Shown: positions 6,289-10,892 of the stretch, piece by piece
Position numbering within the stretch: the stretch's first letter is position 1
Layout: each line of letters begins with the position of its first letter
Origin: Candidatus Heimdallarchaeota archaeon B3_Heim
GTDB lineage: Archaea; Asgardarchaeota; Heimdallarchaeia; Hodarchaeales; Hodarchaeaceae
DNA: 32,000 nt
Direction: 5' to 3'
Assembly (NCBI GenBank): GCA_003144275.1
Contig: NJBF01000026.1
Location: 29,084-61,083 of the forward strand
Program-made: the position numbers and the translations under genes
Notes under the pieces: model-generated
What the model saw: the letters and a program-made list of their open reading frames with translations, nothing else
Database searches by the model: none
What the model was told of the DNA's origin: nothing

Positions 6289-9200
6289 TTGAGGGAAGAT
6301 ATCTTGTTTAAGATAACCAAAGAAGGTAAAAACAAAACCATTTTAATACTAGTTTTATTTATTATTGCGGGAAATTCCACGTTTAACAAAGTTACCATCA
6401 TTCATGAAAGTACCTATAGTACTGCTTCATTAGTAAATAGAATTTGTGAAAAAGATACGTTTAACCGAAATCTTACAAAACCTCAATATATACTTACTGA
6501 ACACGTACAATCAAAATTTGAAATATACAACCAGCCTATTTACAACAGAATCAAACGTGAAACTAGTTCAGATTCCTTTTTCCGAGCCGAAGAGTATAGA
6601 AAAAGACATCTTCTTCCCATATCCGATTACAATGGAATATCAACATTTTCGGATCAATCCAGCGCAGTTTATTCTGTGGCATACGGTCCAAATGGAACTA
6701 TTGCAAGTTCAAGTGATGGATTAATTCTAATATGGAATGCTACAACAGGAAGTATCCTAAATTCACTAAGTTACGGTTCTGCAGTACGATCCATATCTTT
6801 CCATCACAATGGAAGTGTTTTAGCCTTTGGAACTGATGATTTCAAAGTGAATCTATGGAATCTTAATACAGATAATGTTAAAACACTAAGTAACCATGCA
6901 GGAGCAATTCATTCTGTTTCATTTAGCCCAAATGGCAGCCTTTTAGCTTCAGGATCCGAAGATTGGACGATAAATCTATGGTATGTTGATGGGACTACAA
7001 CGCCAATCAAAACTTTAATTGGACATTTTGACACTGTATATGCCGTAGATTTTAGTCATAACGATACTGTTTTAATTTCTGGTTCTGCAGATAATGACAT
7101 TAGAATCTGGGATGTTAATACTCCAGTGTCAAGCTCAAAAAAATTATTAACTGGCTTTCATAACGATTCTGTAAGATCGGTCTCTTATAGTCCAACGGGG
7201 GAATATTTTGCCTCAGGAGCAGGATCAGTTGATAAAACTATTAAAATATGGGATGGATTAACAGCTGCATTAGTTGATAATCTAACAGATCATACTGATG
7301 TTATAAGATCAGTTACATTTGATCCTAAGAATGATGAACTGTTAGCATCAGGAAGTCAAGATGGTAAGGTGAATCTTTGGAATATTACAACAGCATCAAA
7401 AATCAAAGAGATGACGGATCATTCAGGTTTTGTATATTCTGTTTCTTTTGACCCAAGCGGAAACCACTTGATTTCTGGGGGAACTGACACAACAGTTAAA
7501 CTCTGGAACCTCAATCTTGGAAATTTAATAGGAAAAATTGATGGACACACAAATTATATTAATTCCATTGCTTTCAGCCCTAATGGTAGTTTACTCGCCT
7601 CAGGATCTGAGGACACAACCGCAAGAATATGGAACACGACAACTGGAGGTCATTTACTAACTTTACCAGATCATATTTCCCCAATTGATACTCTTGCATT
7701 TAGTCCAAATAGTAGTACATTAGCAACTGGTTCACCGGATAATAATGTTATACTTTGGGATTTAAATGATAACGGAAATATTGTACATATTCTAAACCAT
7801 CCTACTGATGTAACATCAGTTGTTTTTCATCCAAATGGTTCCATTTTAGCCTCAAGTTTGATTAACAGTAATATATCTCTTTGGAACATTAATACAGGAG
7901 AATTAATTTGCAATTTACCAGGGAATACTGATGAAATCCATTCTTTAACCTTTAATCAAGATGGAAACCACTTAGTTGCTGGATTACGCGATGGTTCAAT
8001 AAATATATGGGACGTTGAAACACGATCAATATTAACAAGCTTAACCAATCATAGTGATTCAGTTGTTTCTCTTGCTTTTAGTTCTAATGCGCAATATTTT
8101 GCTTCTGGTTCTAAAGATTCAAGTATTTTAGTTTGGAATGCTTCTACGTTTGAAATAATTTACAATTTAACTGGCCATTCTGCTGAAATAAAATCTGTGA
8201 TATTTAGTCCTGATGGAAGTGCATTAGCTTCGTGTGCCGATGATCAAACTATTCAAGTATGGGATATGGTAGATGGTAGTCGAATTAGGACAATGAATGA
8301 TCCAAATAATGCAACTTCAGTTGCTTTTAATCTAAATGGGAATATATTAGCCTCTGGAAATCGTCTATCAACAGCAATCAAATTATGGAATTCAAGCATT
8401 TCTCTTCTTAGTTTTGACAATTTTTCTTCATCATTAGTCAAATATAATTCAGATTTAAATTTTAAAAAAGAACCACAGTGTGAACTGTCTGCAGGATGGA
8501 ATACAACTTCTCTTACAATCGTACATAATTCTAGCTCATTTAGAACACCATCATCCTTTGACCCATATAGATTGTTTATCAAAACAAAATTCTTAGGAAG
8601 AGAAATCGCAAGAGATTATAATTTATTCATAATATCAACTTTTACTGATTATGATGGAGATGGTTTGCCCAATTCATGGGAAAAAATACATTCTACAGAT
8701 CTCTTAGTGAATGACGCCAGTGATGACATAGACAACGACTATCTTTCAAATTTAGGAGAGTTTCAAGCTCAAACTGATCCAAACAATAGAGATTCGGACA
8801 ACGATGGGTGGTTTGATGGATCAGAAGTTTCAAATTCATCAAATCCGCTAGTAAATAACTCTGCTCCTTTTATTACATGGCCTGAATCTCTAAAGACATT
8901 AAATAATTCAGCTACAAACATTTCTAATCAAAGTTGGCAAGTTAACACAACTAATGCAAAATCAATTGATATTTGGGTAAATGATAATTATACAGAGACA
9001 GTTATTTATCCTTTCATCTGGAATGTAACATTAATCGAAGAATTGAATAATTTAACATATATAGCTTATTATGATGTTCCTGTGAATTATAATAAGACTG
9101 TATTCTTAATTACATTAGATTCTACTGCACCAACGATTAATCTTGTTAATCCATTGACTGAAGATGCAGTACTTAATAGTAAAAGCACAATTACTATAAA

Positions 9201-10446
9201 TGTACAAGGATATAATGAACTATTTTCATATTGGGACAACGGGAGCTTTAGTAAAACAGAAATTCAGACAAAAGTAAACTTTATCTCAAATCATACCTCT
9301 CTTAAGCTTTTAAACACAAAAACTGATTCAAATATTAATTTTGAACTACCTGGATCAGATGGAGTTCATACACTCTATTTAATGGCAGTTGATGAGGTTG
9401 GAAATATTCGATTGGCTGATTTTTCATTCATTACAGATGATACTCCTCCAACTGCCATAATCCAAGGAATATCTGAATTTCTATTTATGTCTGGGACGAA
9501 AGTCATTAGAGTTATTCCTAGTGATAATAATTCTATTGATCGAGTTGAATTCGAATTATCGGGAGACCTTATTACCACTGATAATAATTCACCATATCGG
9601 TGGGAATGGAATACAGCTGAAACAGAAGATGGAATTTATTTGATTCGTATTACAGTCTACGATGCCGCAGGAAATGCCTACACAAAGACATTTTACGGGA
9701 TTTTTGTGGTGAATGATCCCATTGAATTTCTCTGTTTCCTTTTCTTAGAGTATTTCCCAGTGTTTTTATTGATTATCCTTGCAATACTTATCTTAATAAT
9801 AATATGTAGTATGAGAAAGAAGATTCATATTTTATACACATATGCTAATCCACCAATTAACCCACTAGAAATTAAACCAGAGATTGTGTTTAATAAAATA
9901 GAGGAAGAACTTAAAGAAACAAAGTATGGAAACAGAATAAAACTCATTCAAAAGGGAGAAATAACTAAAGATGATCTTTCACCATGGCTAGCTGATCCTA
10001 ATTTTAAACTCAGTGTTTTTCAATTTTCAGGACATGGAAAAAAGGGATATCTTCAATTTATAAACCCAGAGGACACTAATCTTGGGGAAGCAATTCCTGC
10101 AGATCATATCACTGAAGCTTTTCGTTTACATAAAAATAAAATCAAAATCGTAGTTTTACGAGCATGCTCTTCTTTAAAGATTGCTGAGAGTCTAATGGAA
10201 CATATTGATATTATAATTGGAATGTCCAAAGAAGTTCAAGATGCTGCTGCAGCAAAATTCACAATTGGATTCTATAAGTTCTTAGCAGCTGGCAAGAACG
10301 TGCAAGAAGCATACGAAAAAGGATTATCAGATATGGAAATTTCAAAAGGGCACGGTCGTGATATTGTTAAGTTAGTACATCGTGAAGAAGTAAAACCTGG
10401 GAAAGTAAAACTCTTTCGATGGCGGTTTTTACTATGTTTTTTATAA
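6289..10446 (+). CDS. receptor-like type I membrane protein: 14 WD40 repeats, DxDxDG Ca-binding (TSP3-like) repeats, Ig-like domains, TM helix, cytoplasmic CHAT (caspase-like) peptidase
   Basis: 14 countable WD40 repeats (~6640-8400); DYDGDGLPNSWE...DSDNDGWFDGSEV (~8645-8850); TM ~9727-9810; CHAT motifs ILYTYANP, FQFSGHG (His at 10033), VVLRACSS (Cys at 10165), IIGM...DAAAAKFTIGFY. The exact start codon (TTG) is uncertain. Confidence 0.85.
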   Translation: MREDILFKITKEGKNKTILILVLFIIAGNSTFNKVTIIHESTYSTASLVNRICEKDTFNRNLTKPQYILTEHVQSKFEIYNQPIYNRIKRETSSDSFFRAEEYRKRHLLPISDYNGISTFSDQSSAVYSVAYGPNGTIASSSDGLILIWNATTGSILNSLSYGSAVRSISFHHNGSVLAFGTDDFKVNLWNLNTDNVKTLSNHAGAIHSVSFSPNGSLLASGSEDWTINLWYVDGTTTPIKTLIGHFDTVYAVDFSHNDTVLISGSADNDIRIWDVNTPVSSSKKLLTGFHNDSVRSVSYSPTGEYFASGAGSVDKTIKIWDGLTAALVDNLTDHTDVIRSVTFDPKNDELLASGSQDGKVNLWNITTASKIKEMTDHSGFVYSVSFDPSGNHLISGGTDTTVKLWNLNLGNLIGKIDGHTNYINSIAFSPNGSLLASGSEDTTARIWNTTTGGHLLTLPDHISPIDTLAFSPNSSTLATGSPDNNVILWDLNDNGNIVHILNHPTDVTSVVFHPNGSILASSLINSNISLWNINTGELICNLPGNTDEIHSLTFNQDGNHLVAGLRDGSINIWDVETRSILTSLTNHSDSVVSLAFSSNAQYFASGSKDSSILVWNASTFEIIYNLTGHSAEIKSVIFSPDGSALASCADDQTIQVWDMVDGSRIRTMNDPNNATSVAFNLNGNILASGNRLSTAIKLWNSSISLLSFDNFSSSLVKYNSDLNFKKEPQCELSAGWNTTSLTIVHNSSSFRTPSSFDPYRLFIKTKFLGREIARDYNLFIISTFTDYDGDGLPNSWEKIHSTDLLVNDASDDIDNDYLSNLGEFQAQTDPNNRDSDNDGWFDGSEVSNSSNPLVNNSAPFITWPESLKTLNNSATNISNQSWQVNTTNAKSIDIWVNDNYTETVIYPFIWNVTLIEELNNLTYIAYYDVPVNYNKTVFLITLDSTAPTINLVNPLTEDAVLNSKSTITINVQGYNELFSYWDNGSFSKTEIQTKVNFISNHTSLKLLNTKTDSNINFELPGSDGVHTLYLMAVDEVGNIRLADFSFITDDTPPTAIIQGISEFLFMSGTKVIRVIPSDNNSIDRVEFELSGDLITTDNNSPYRWEWNTAETEDGIYLIRITVYDAAGNAYTKTFYGIFVVNDPIEFLCFLFLEYFPVFLLIILAILILIIICSMRKKIHILYTYANPPINPLEIKPEIVFNKIEEELKETKYGNRIKLIQKGEITKDDLSPWLADPNFKLSVFQFSGHGKKGYLQFINPEDTNLGEAIPADHITEAFRLHKNKIKIVVLRACSSLKIAESLMEHIDIIIGMSKEVQDAAAAKFTIGFYKFLAAGKNVQEAYEKGLSDMEISKGHGRDIVKLVHREEVKPGKVKLFRWRFLLCFL

Positions 10447-10493
10447 GAAGACTATTTTACTTAAAATGAAGAAAAAGAAAGGTGAAGAAATAA

Positions 10494-10892
10494 ATGGAAG
10501 TTGAAATGAATATAATTTTTGAAGAAAAAATTGAAACAAGTAAATTAAATACTTTTATTAAGGAATTAAACAATGAAACCATGAAAATAGATGAAGATCT
10601 AGGAGAAATGAGAACATTCAAAGAAACAAGTCAAGCAATGCCTCTTGATCCCATAATAAAACAATTACTTATCGCTGTTTTAGCACCTATTTTTACCGAC
10701 TACATTCGAGAAAAGAGTCCTGTTGCAAAAAAATATGCCAAAAAAATGTTTAAGAAAGTCTTTGAAAAGATGAAAAAATTAACAAACAAATCAAAGATTG
10801 TCATCAAAAAGGCAGGAGAAGAGATAATGACTCTACTCGAAGGCACTGATGAAGAATTTGATAAAGCAGTGAGAATACTCTCACTAGAATAA
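10494..10892 (+). CDS. small protein with a central hydrophobic helix, EACC1-like in architecture; putative partner of the CHAT protease
   Basis: 132 aa, 47 nt downstream of the CHAT gene and co-directional; hydrophobic segment DPIIKQLLIAVLAPIFTDYI. The family assignment is only inferred. Confidence 0.6.
   Translation: MEVEMNIIFEEKIETSKLNTFIKELNNETMKIDEDLGEMRTFKETSQAMPLDPIIKQLLIAVLAPIFTDYIREKSPVAKKYAKKMFKKVFEKMKKLTNKSKIVIKKAGEEIMTLLEGTDEEFDKAVRILSLE

Follow-up and report, generated by a model that had tools for sequence, protein, structure and literature searches.

The gene P0001 of Candidatus Heimdallarchaeota archaeon B3_Heim seems to encode a receptor on the cell surface that controls a switch for cell death or defence, because in a sister species this outer part is combined with another alarm module. 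In the explanation that we favour, and consider modestly probable, P0001 is a surface receptor with a CHAT protease that releases a membrane-attacking fragment of the product of the adjoining small gene, P0002. The features of both genes, as located in the window (the whole stretch of 32,000 nucleotides that was analysed), are collected in Table 1.

Table 1. Positions in the window of the P0001–P0002 locus and its divergent neighbour
Feature	Position	Strand	Basis
Receptor-protease gene P0001, 1385 aa, TTG start	6289..10446	+	ORF list, translation
Signal peptide or N-terminal anchor, residues 1-35	6289..6393	+	hydropathy scan, translation
14 WD40 blades, residues 121-701, predicted extracellular and N-glycosylated	6649..8391	+	Pfam WD40, count of blade-end motifs
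Acidic thrombospondin type 3-like (calcium-binding type) repeats, residues 787-846	8647..8826	+	Pfam TSP3_bac
Ig-like juxtamembrane stalk domain, residues 1070-1134	9496..9690	+	Pfam Big_7, Big_13
Single TM helix, residues 1147-1175, then RKK	9727..9813	+	Kyte-Doolittle, translation
Predicted cytoplasmic CHAT (caspase-fold) protease domain, residues 1176-1385	9814..10443	+	profile, model, dyad alignment
Catalytic His1249	10033-10035	+	codon checked
Catalytic Cys1293	10165-10167	+	codon checked
Small gene P0002, 132 aa, putative substrate of the protease and effector acting on membranes	10494..10892	+	translation, layout
Shine-Dalgarno-like GGTGA, 8 nt 5' of the small-gene ATG	10481..10485	+	read from sequence
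T-rich tract CTTTTTTATTTCT right behind the P0002 stop codon	10900..10912	+	read from sequence
Metzincin-like surface protein, 965 aa, divergent neighbour of P0001	3107..6004	-	BLASTP

Results

Domain architecture of P0001

P0001, which also occurs among the representative sequences of the public protein library (as P0003, the same protein), has the anatomy given in the preliminary description: a hydrophobic N-terminus, 14 WD40 repeats, calcium-type repeats, an Ig-like stalk, a TM helix with RKK and a CHAT domain were all found in place. The N-terminus consists of a basic n-region (KEGKNK), a 12-residue hydrophobic core (TILILVLFIIAG) and then NST, with the hydrophobic stretch covering residues 11-30, and the N-terminus of the ortholog in G021, a genome of the same genus, is equivalent. 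The Pfam WD40 model matched 13 stretches (7.5e-113), as did many whole-propeller models, and a count of the blade ends gave exactly 14, each closing in [LIV]W[DNY] and 41-47 residues apart, which would be enough for two seven-bladed propellers. TSP3_bac was matched at residues 787-804 (4.5e-6; 26.8 bits, with the cut-off at 25) within repeats that read DYDGDG...DSDNDGWFDGSE. The stalk was recognized by Big_7 (8.2e-10) and Big_13 (6.1e-8) and is 46% identical to that of a Hodarchaeota surface protein (G007:C28). The TM segment is one strong hydrophobic helix, with a Kyte-Doolittle peak of 3.27.

Identity of the protease domain

Scored directly against Pfam CHAT, P0001 reached 17.6 bits, under the 24-bit threshold. 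A search with the domain itself found 9370 relatives, and 59 of 60 that were sampled match Pfam CHAT; the NCBIfam HetF model was matched by 16 of the 60. Comparison by phmmer with the SAVED-CHAT structure 8TL0 gave 1.3e-8 and paired FSGHG and RACS of P0001 with FIGHG and NACC, the positions of the H375/C422 dyad proven by mutation (bioRxiv 10.1101/2023.06.23.546230); in the template the chain index is offset by 20 (our own count), with an identical 47-residue spacing. With a profile of the family, 8TL0 was reached at 8e-35. An AF2 model of the domain (pLDDT 93.7) had 8TL0 as its top Foldseek match (TMq 0.83), followed by MALT1 and caspases. In the C-terminal 210 aa, H1249 lies in SGHG and C1293 in RACS; among the 60 relatives GHG is invariant and at least 90% carry the Cys. 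Because of the 9370 relatives, the profile match, the model and the alignment of H1249/C1293 with a proven dyad, the prediction of a caspase fold in which the His-Cys dyad is intact can be regarded as secure, as had been proposed.

Membrane topology

Hydropathy and the distribution of N-x-S/T sequons support P0001 as a type I single-pass membrane protein, with the WD40 part outside and CHAT inside. The ectodomain contains 36 sequons (19 within the WD40 part) and the tail 0. Shuffled sequences gave an expectation of 23 for the ectodomain (p 0.004), and the density of 3.2 per 100 aa lies above the 99th percentile among the ORFs of the genome. The G021 ortholog has the same asymmetry (28 versus 0), and its TM helix is followed by RRRR where P0001 has RKK. 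TSP3 and Ig-like domains are typically found in extracellular proteins, and the genus has further WD40 proteins with a signal peptide and an anchoring TM helix at the C-terminus. The original topology is kept because the sequon bias, the positive-inside rule and the outside-type domains all place the WD40 part outside.

The inverted arrangement, in which the N-terminal segment is unexported, the propellers are cytoplasmic and CHAT is outside like the periplasmic TPR-CHAT of DdvA, is very improbable. WD40 propellers are cytoplasmic as a rule and the N-terminal hydrophobic core has just 12 residues, both of which would fit it. DdvA further provides a precedent for CHAT outside the membrane (PMC11506125). 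However, it would leave the sequon bias of both orthologs and the basic residues C-terminal to their TM helices on the wrong sides, with TSP3 and Ig-like domains on the same side as WD40, and it would export the cyclase-like tail of the ortholog (see below), although a cyclase requires cytoplasmic NTP and partners the cytoplasmically activated PycTM.

The small gene P0002 and its linkage

P0002 begins after a spacer of 47 nt, and the T-rich tract behind it is likely an archaeal terminator that closes a two-gene unit. The protein has an acidic N-terminal half (net -6), a hydrophobic centre (residues 51-67) and a basic C-terminal half (net +6). P0002, P0154 and a true EACC1 have N parts of -6, -11 and -7 and C parts of +6, +6 and +5, each with a central hydrophobic 17-mer between the acidic and basic parts, and by this analogy P0002 looks like a cleavable membrane-damaging effector. 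Tests for homology to EACC1 did not reveal any: Pfam EACC1 was not matched, hhalign gave a probability of 0.2%, and the score of a targeted HMM was no better than that of 12.7% of shuffles. The earlier label 'EACC1-like' is therefore restricted to the layout.

P0002 was an orphan in a search of 5.8 billion proteins. In G019, another genome of the genus, a 134-aa ORF directly 3' of a CHAT gene matches it as a weak homolog (BLASTP E 0.002). This ORF is one of ~31 noise-level matches in 60 genomes, yet it adjoins a CHAT gene; with about 6 CHAT genes in that comparison, a rough estimate of the chance of such a coincidence is about 2e-4. The CHAT domains of P0001 and G019 are sisters (support 100/85), and each, when placed alone, attaches to the relative P0038. 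The linkage of the two genes that had been noted from the sequence is thus upheld by the Shine-Dalgarno site of P0002, the closing T-tract and the weak homolog behind the sister CHAT domain.

Related loci and distribution

In G021, the ortholog P0193 is 42% identical to P0001 across 856 aa of ectodomain and diverges past the TM helix, where its cytoplasmic domain differs from CHAT and is cyclase-like. Comparison of the tail with class III cyclases gave an Atlas features score of 0.95, with 72 of 100 matches in Guanylate_cyc clusters, and an hhalign match (E 0.0013) collinear across both metal-binding Asp motifs, so that its assignment as a cyclase is moderately supported. The gene that follows encodes the Pycsar membrane effector PycTM (Pfam 1.1e-8, PADLOC 1.9e-20). 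This locus shows the same ectodomain feeding a predicted defence-type signalling pair and strengthens the receptor idea. In G019, the sister CHAT domain is carried by a cytoplasmic Ras-like GTPase protein, with the weak P0002 homolog behind it. Since one ectodomain occurs with a cyclase-like domain plus PycTM, and the CHAT and small-gene cassette with a GTPase, the best explanation is that the ectodomain with its TM helix and the cytoplasmic output with its effector are separate, probably exchangeable modules.

The ectodomain is present in 2 of 22 genomes of the genus. A survey of Asgard genomes had been proposed in the preliminary description; of 400 genomes searched, one has the TM-CHAT receptor architecture and two have the small-protein family, each with a single member. 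The receptor is therefore a rare accessory gene, known solely from metagenome-assembled genomes.

The metzincin-like neighbour of P0001 resembles the neighbour of the G021 receptor (BLASTP 3e-25, 31% identity, HxxGHNxGLxH included), which we take as context for the receptor locus and, at most, as a putative component of the system. Mobile-element markers are also present in the window, namely a D5_N helicase (at 1-831), a VirB4/HerA-like ATPase and a DDE transposase.

Discussion

We hypothesize that a multivalent outside ligand (for example a viral particle, the surface of a foreign cell, or a partner cell) would bind the propellers and cluster the receptors. Clustering would juxtapose the cytoplasmic CHAT domains and activate them, by analogy with the oligomerisation of SAVED-CHAT. 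The active protease would then cut the co-transcribed P0002 so as to separate the acidic N-terminal half from the C-terminal half with its hydrophobic and basic parts, and the released C-terminal half may attack the membrane, as EACC1 pro-toxins do in bacteria after caspase cleavage. Several results weigh against this scheme: the homology between P0002 and EACC1 that was sought was not found, the small-protein family has two members only, the gene and domain order is the reverse of the canonical one, the direct Pfam CHAT score is under threshold, and the receptor is rare and known solely from metagenome-assembled genomes.

It is unlikely, although it deserves some weight, that P0001 is instead an adhesion or cell-envelope protein with housekeeping CHAT proteolysis on the model of HetF and no death or defence output, P0002 being a regulator, an inhibitor or unrelated. 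Surface proteins with extracellular WD40, TSP3 and Ig-like domains and C-terminal anchors are common in these genomes, the HetF model is matched by some of the CHAT relatives, P0002 has no toxin family demonstrable by Pfam or hhalign, and the CHAT protease HetF, itself a membrane protein, acts on a housekeeping substrate (PMC8406250, PMC9457339). However, in G021 the ortholog joins its ectodomain to a cyclase-like domain and is followed by a defence-type membrane effector, the CHAT and small-gene cassette reappears on an unrelated sensor, the occurrence within the genus is sporadic, as is typical for accessory conflict genes, and the charge and hydrophobicity layout of P0002 is that of a pro-toxin.

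That P0002 is an inhibitor, adaptor or membrane tether, with the true substrates elsewhere (for example the juxtamembrane linker of the receptor, or other cellular proteins), seems improbable to us. The evidence covers the linkage of the two genes, and CHAT proteases of other logic exist, since SAVED-CHAT cleaves a second protease and DdvA is proposed to cut itself (PMC11506125); against this stand the layout that P0002 has in common with EACC1 pro-toxins and the neighbouring membrane effector in the parallel G021 cassette. The locus could also be a mosaic of recent origin, perhaps without function, or a chimera created by assembly, situated in a mobile region of a metagenome-assembled genome and perhaps never expressed as one protein. 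This would fit the mobile-element markers and the singleton architecture, but is highly improbable given a frame unbroken for 1385 codons, intact blades and catalytic residues, the same ectodomain-TM-output plan in an independent genome, and a small gene preceded by a good Shine-Dalgarno sequence and followed by a tract that resembles a terminator.

The proposed receptor-protease system was compared with known ones. EACC1 is a substrate of the caspase-like protease encoded next to it, and the C-terminal fragment makes membranes permeable (Evans et al. 2025, bioRxiv 10.1101/2025.11.14.688446). As there, a gene for a caspase-superfamily protease adjoins one for a small protein (~130 aa) in which an acidic N-part is followed by a hydrophobic helix at the centre and then a C-terminal part; a constant protease is combined with variable sensor domains; and a cNMP cyclase at times displaces the caspase, in parallel to the G021 variant. 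TM helices occur in at least 33% of EACC1-linked caspase proteins in bacteria, some with an extracellular PBP domain (Kaur et al. 2020, PMC7159879 section 33), so that the earlier premise of cytoplasmic sensors for such caspases was too strong. In contrast, P0002 falls outside the detectable EACC1 members, the small gene is 3' rather than 5', the protease is C-terminal rather than N-terminal and scores 16.5 bits on the NCBIfam EACC1-type caspase model (cut-off 140), the host is an Asgard archaeon, and the ectodomain is a predicted double WD40 propeller.

SAVED-CHAT of Haliangium ochraceum (8TL0) is the closest solved relative of the P0001 protease, with its dyad aligned, and is activated by sensor-driven oligomerisation (bioRxiv 10.1101/2023.06.23.546230), the mechanism proposed here. 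It differs in that it senses cA3 through a cytoplasmic SAVED domain and lacks a TM helix, and it cleaves a second protease (PCaspase), whereas a small membrane protein is the proposed target of P0001. HetF of Anabaena is likewise a membrane-anchored CHAT protease, but with the order CHAT-TM-TPR and an N-terminal protease; it degrades PatU3 in cyanobacterial cell division and heterocyst development (PMC8406250, PMC9457339) and has neither a large N-terminal ectodomain nor a small effector gene. The anti-sigma factor DdvA is also single-pass and, in antiviral defence, couples signalling across the membrane to a CHAT domain (PMC11506125), but that domain is periplasmic with an incomplete active site, whereas the CHAT domain of P0001 is complete and predicted to be cytoplasmic, and the cytoplasmic part of DdvA is an anti-sigma domain with transcription as its output. 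Pycsar, which pairs a cyclase with PycTM, resembles the G021 locus and differs from the P0001 locus, which has no cyclase or PycTM in the window. Known Pycsar cyclases are soluble.

The parallel with eukaryotic death receptors (a ligand outside the cell, clustering of a single-pass receptor and activation of a caspase by proximity) and with Apaf-1, in which two WD40 propellers govern a caspase, is one of analogy only. The caspase fold is all that is common, at the superfamily level, no homology of sensors or adaptors is claimed, and in P0001 the protease is fused straight to the receptor. Protease-effector modules are already known; what would be new here is a CHAT protease-effector variant with an extracellular double WD40 receptor, in an Asgard archaeon of the Hodarchaeota.

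Domain organization and topology of P0001

The receptor gene lies on contig C50 of a 3.95-Mb genome that is 94% complete; all genomes used in the comparisons are metagenome-assembled. Proteins from genomes of the same genus are labelled Candidatus Hodarchaeota archaeon, which makes the host an Asgard archaeon. The preliminary description ascribed to P0001, the 1385-aa WD40 ectodomain-TM-CHAT protein, an N-terminal hydrophobic segment, WD40 repeats, calcium-binding repeats, an Ig-like stalk and a single TM helix before a CHAT domain, and all of these elements were found in place. 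The WD40 repeats match the Pfam WD40 family (7.5e-113), and the cut-offs of several whole-propeller models are also exceeded. From the number of blades, two 7-bladed propellers would be expected.

Coordinates of the receptor, its candidate partner and related or neighbouring features (residue numbers for parts of P0001, nucleotides otherwise)
Feature	Location	Position	Strand	Details
P0001 ORF	window	6289-10446	+	1385 aa
N-terminus	P0001			KEGKNK-TILILVLFIIAG; basic stretch, then 12-residue hydrophobic core
WD40 blades (14)	P0001	121-701		[LIV]W[DNY] closes each; spacing 41-47 residues
TSP3-type repeat region	P0001	787-846		acidic
Big_7 and Big_13 Ig-like domains	P0001	1070-1134		
TM helix (one)	P0001	1147-1175		very hydrophobic; followed by RKK
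C-terminal tail	P0001	after TM helix		210 residues
P0002 ORF	window	10494-10892	+	132 aa; 47 nt after receptor stop codon
D5_N helicase fragment	window	1-831	-	
Metzincin-like surface protein	window	3107-6004	-	965 aa; divergent from receptor
P-loop ATPase	window	11280-13418	+	712 aa; HerA/FtsK/VirB4-like
SatD-family protein and overlapping ORF	window	14702-15771	-	211 aa, then 146 aa
DDE transposase	window	25697-26947		
P0153	L025 (G019:C68)	3131-5881		916 aa; Ras/Roc-type GTPase, unassigned 500-aa middle region, C-terminal CHAT
P0154	L025 (G019:C68)	5847-6251		134 aa; overlaps P0153 end by 35 nt
P0193 receptor	L044 (G021:C187)	1019-4567		1182 aa; WD40 ectodomain, TM, cyclase-like tail
PycTM effector gene	L044 (G021:C187)	4646-5212		directly downstream of P0193
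Propeller protein	L045 (G007:C28)	1622-5182	+	1186 aa
WD40 protein	L045 (G007:C28)	6427-7761	-	444 aa
P0038	L076 (GCA_014729315.1)	857-2635		ATPase-CHAT fusion
Multi-pass membrane protein	L076 (GCA_014729315.1)	2688-3206		172 aa; after P0038
EACC1	L086 (GCA_048887365.1)	1187-1582		131 aa
Peptidase_C14 protein	L086 (GCA_048887365.1)	1579-3480		633 aa
EACC1, truncated	L031 (G016:C148)	373-654		93 aa; short contig

The WD40 part very probably lies outside the cell and the CHAT domain inside, as had been proposed, and several lines of evidence agree on this. Residues 36-1145 carry 36 N-x-S/T sequons, where shuffles that preserve composition predict 23.1 ± 4.1 (p 0.004). The ectodomain density of 3.2 per 100 aa lies above 2.77, the 99th percentile among the 2195 ORFs that the genome has at 200 aa or longer. 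No sequon occurs in the 210-aa tail, a count that alone is not significant, the tail being poor in N, S and T. The same split (28 vs 0) is seen in P0193, the ectodomain ortholog in G021, a genome of the same genus. Basic residues follow the TM helix in both proteins, RKK in P0001 and RRRR in the ortholog. Domains of the TSP3 and Ig-like types usually occur in extracellular proteins. The genus also contains other proteins that combine a signal peptide with a WD40 or other propeller, the stalk seen in P0001 and, at the C-terminus, a TM anchor.

Two further surface proteins are encoded at locus L045. The 1186-aa propeller protein has a TM helix, a stalk 46% identical to that of P0001, and a tail that is short and basic. 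The 444-aa protein combines WD40 repeats with a signal peptide and a TM helix, and its cytoplasmic tail is short and Cys-rich. As judged from such sequences, extracellular propellers on a P0001-type stalk are a recurring theme of the genus.

The C-terminal domain is a predicted CHAT peptidase

The direct Pfam CHAT (PF12770) score of P0001 is sub-threshold (E 0.0029, 17.6 bits against a gathering threshold of 24), and PADLOC and NCBIfam gave only faint SAVED_CHAT and 'caspase, EACC1-associated' matches to the tail. Despite this score, the domain is assigned to CHAT because of its relatives. A phmmer search of PDB sequences returned the CHAT domain of 8TL0, the SAVED-CHAT structure of Haliangium ochraceum (1.3e-8). 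When 1.84 billion representatives were searched exhaustively with HMMER, 9370 relatives were found, 3700 with E<=1e-10; Pfam CHAT matched 59 of the 60 aligned relatives sampled, and a profile built from aligned relatives reached 8TL0 at 8e-35.

Single-sequence AF2 folding of the TM and CHAT part was poor (pLDDT 54.8), and an alignment-based model of the CHAT domain was used instead (pLDDT 93.7, pTM 0.90). Its top Foldseek match is 8TL0 (E 1.7e-14, TMq 0.83), with MALT1, caspases 1, 4, 8 and 11, gingipain and legumain next. H1249 belongs to a GHG motif that does not vary in the family alignment, and C1293 is kept in at least 90% of 60 relatives. In pairwise alignment with 8TL0, FSGHG falls on FIGHG and RACS on NACC. 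By our count the 8TL0 dyad occupies chain positions 355 and 402. These are the residues published as H375 and C422, the numbering differing by 20 and the spacing being 47 in both. Mutation of H375 and C422 abolishes SAVED-CHAT activity (bioRxiv 10.1101/2023.06.23.546230). Profile, Foldseek and dyad alignment thus bear out the fold and the intact His-Cys dyad claimed for P0001, whose tail is, on sequence and model, a CHAT domain (clan CD, caspase-hemoglobinase fold) and a predicted peptidase.

The small downstream gene resembles EACC1 in layout

The 132-aa protein P0002 is encoded by the gene following the receptor. A GGTGA Shine-Dalgarno sequence lies 8 nt 5' of its ATG, and the T-rich tract CTTTTTTATTTCT stands directly after the gene. 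These sequence features fit a two-gene transcription unit, which P0001 and P0002 probably form. A search of sequencing runs, which does not address expression, returned no RNA run and one DNA run with 11% of the words.

In P0002 a 50-aa acidic N-terminal part (net -6) leads into a 17-residue hydrophobic segment (51-67; Kyte-Doolittle 1.75), and the C-terminal part is basic (+6). The same layout is found in P0154 (-11, 2.46, +6), the small ORF after the CHAT gene of G019, and in a true EACC1 of a Hodarchaeota MAG (-7, 2.08, +5). The small-residue patch of the hydrophobic segment is clear in P0154 (APAIGAVVG) and weak in P0002 (AVLAP). EACC1 is cleaved at about residue 49 by the neighbouring caspase-like protease, and its C-terminal fragment forms membrane pores (both bioRxiv 10.1101/2025.11.14.688446).

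The earlier label 'EACC1-like' is not retained in the sense of family membership, since the likeness is one of layout alone. EACC1 (Pfam PF19953) was not found for P0002 by hmmscan at E<=10 or in a six-frame genome search, and hhalign of P0002, or of P0002 with P0154, against 25 true EACC1 gave a probability of 0.2% (E 0.27-0.34). P0002 scores 0.6 bits with the unfiltered EACC1 HMM; 12.7% of shuffles reach this value, and the reversed sequence surpasses it. The score of P0154 is marginal, equalled by 0.45% of shuffles and by 1 of 470 genome ORFs. The sole positive lead for P0002 is an Atlas feature neighbour at rank 20, in a cluster with 19% EACC1 members. Because homology could not be demonstrated, we term P0002 'works-like EACC1 (proposed)' rather than a member of the family. 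The predicted complex of the CHAT domain with P0002 scored 0.00, which gives no verdict and was counted neither way.

Over 400 Asgard genomes, the EACC1 Pfam model gave nothing above its cut-off. It led, however, to the truncated true EACC1 in G016 (L031) and from there to a collection of 35 true EACC1 proteins. At L086 a canonical pair is present, in which the EACC1 gene overlaps the downstream gene for a Peptidase_C14 protein that has Ig-like domains and no TM helix. The MAGs of both L086 and L031 are labelled Hodarchaeota; the contigs are short and contamination is possible. In EACC1 pairs the small gene lies 5' of the caspase-superfamily gene, whereas P0002 is adjacent and co-directional but 3'.

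A CHAT and small-gene cassette in G019

Searches of a word index of 5.8 billion proteins, of 60 genomes and, with a two-sequence profile, of 400 Asgard genomes returned only P0002 itself and P0154. The latter, the only credible relative found, shares a GTD[DE]E motif and a basic helix with P0002 (BLASTP E 0.002). This similarity is itself at noise level, being one of ~31 matches at E<=0.5 in the 60 genomes; P0154 adjoins one of only ~6 CHAT genes in those genomes, and the chance of this is roughly estimated at ~2 in 10,000. A maximum-likelihood tree built from 62 CHAT domains makes those of the window and of P0153, the CHAT protein of the same-genus genome G019, sisters (support 100/85), with both on long branches; either one alone still attaches to P0038. 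The adjacency of P0154 and the sister relationship together indicate that the CHAT domain and small gene behave as a cassette that can be joined to different sensors.

Around four other close CHAT relatives (P0011, P0013, P0004 and P0038), no P0002-like gene was found. P0038 is the nearest outgroup of the window CHAT clade, and the multi-pass membrane protein encoded after it may represent another pairing of a protease with a membrane effector.

The same ectodomain with another output in G021

P0193 and P0001 share 42% identity across 856 aa, a stretch that begins in the linker before the WD40 repeats and takes in every blade and the TSP3 region. Its TM helix is at the equivalent position, where the similarity to P0001 ends. 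The 204-aa tail had no match in Pfam, PADLOC or NCBIfam, nor one to Guanylate_cyc (PF00211) even at E 10. Its language-model features in the Atlas matched small Guanylate_cyc proteins at 0.95 (72 of 100 matches), and comparison by hhalign with class III cyclase domains of Asgard origin, seven in all, gave E 0.0013 over 100 columns, with the metal-binding Asp motifs SWDISDST and AGDNF in register. Assignment of the tail as a class III cyclase is uncertain. The following gene product matches PycTM, the Pycsar membrane effector (35.9 bits with the Pfam model, whose cut-off is 27.2; 1.9e-20 with PADLOC). As a candidate receptor-type Pycsar-like pair, in which a surface-receptor cyclase would feed PycTM, this locus would be of interest in itself.

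The window and G021 loci also share a divergent upstream metzincin-like surface protein (3e-25). Since the same ectodomain is joined to different outputs, we consider them one locus type with two 'cytoplasmic signal generator + membrane effector' cassettes.

Genomic neighbourhood

The metzincin-like protein of the window contains HSIGHNLGLEH and has a weak CARDB match. The ATPase encoded on the other side of the two genes matches DUF87 (8.4e-16) and, weakly, the CedD and VirB4 NCBIfam models. EACC1 modules are sometimes fused to EccC-like ATPases (bioRxiv 10.1101/2025.11.14.688446). As a third component of the system this ATPase was rejected: it lies 388 nt off, past the T-tract, and G019 has no such neighbour. 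Together with the mobile-element markers, the D5_N helicase fragment and the DDE transposase, the ATPase suggests that the receptor is located within, or close to, a mobile or integrated element. Further along is the SatD-family gene (Pfam 9.2e-27); its product and the overlapping ORF, which has no family match, were read in the preliminary description as a possible cyclase-effector pair.

Rarity and relation to known systems

An ortholog of the receptor ectodomain is present in 2 of 22 genomes of the genus, and the window-type CHAT domain in 17 of 400 Asgard genomes. Among the other CHAT ORFs checked from the 400 Asgard genomes (10 of the returned loci), none has a TM helix beside CHAT. Of the best 149 global relatives, 121 lack a TM helix and ~15 have the order CHAT-TM-X; an ectodomain-TM-CHAT order is possible in at most 2, both small. 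The preliminary description proposed a search of Asgard genomes for TM-CHAT proteins with a small downstream gene. A putative relative of the small gene adjoins the G019 CHAT gene; TM-CHAT was not found elsewhere at the Asgard loci checked.

CHAT-TM-X is the order of HetF-like and canonical EACC1-caspase proteins, and in P0001 it is reversed. HetF has the order CHAT-TM-TPR (PMC8406250), and P0001 is ruled out as a HetF-type protein by its C-terminal protease, as opposed to N-terminal CHAT-TM-repeats. In DdvA the TPR-CHAT part is periplasmic (PMC11506125). Among bacterial EACC1-linked caspase proteins, TM helices occur in at least 33% and an extracellular PBP domain in some; a cNMP cyclase can also take the place of the caspase in EACC1 modules (Kaur et al. 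2020, PMC7159879). No paper that combines Asgard, CHAT, caspase and WD40 came up in a full-text literature search. With TM caspases, HetF and DdvA already on record, the locus extends known designs and is not a new kind.

Proposed mechanism and implications

The sequence comparisons and models establish the receptor anatomy, the CHAT fold and dyad, the small-gene linkage and the modular swap of output. In the mechanism that we propose, an outside ligand would bind the P0001 ectodomain and receptor clustering would switch on the cytoplasmic CHAT domain, which would then cut P0002 and leave its C-terminal half to attack the membrane. The system may serve antiviral defence, the recognition of kin or of a partner, or another function. 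Class III cyclases act as dimers. SAVED-CHAT is activated by oligomerisation (bioRxiv 10.1101/2023.06.23.546230). For these two reasons the clustering proposal suits both outputs.

More broadly, and as a tentative reading that we hold possible rather than probable, these proteins may be Asgard 'death-receptor-like' surface sensors. A glycosylated double propeller would detect a virus, a foreign cell or a partner cell, and clustering would fire the fused caspase-fold protease onto a small pore-forming pro-toxin; in the sister species the same ectodomain would control a cyclase and PycTM suicide module. Jointly they would form a new class of systems for abortive infection or programmed cell death that are coupled to a receptor and act from the outside in, and this in the archaeal lineage most closely related to eukaryotes. 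The case for the receptor rests on few metagenome-assembled genomes.

To our knowledge, those protease-effector and cyclic-nucleotide defence modules of prokaryotes that have been characterised rely on intracellular sensing of infection. The window and G021 loci suggest that a single-pass surface receptor can drive such killing modules; if so, the decision of the cell would come before or at contact with the virus or other cell. An ectodomain, one TM helix and a proximity-activated caspase-fold protease would parallel eukaryotic death-receptor/caspase logic, here in an Asgard host and as a concrete two-gene system open to testing. The swap of outputs on one ectodomain offers a natural experiment that separates the sensor from the effector cassette.
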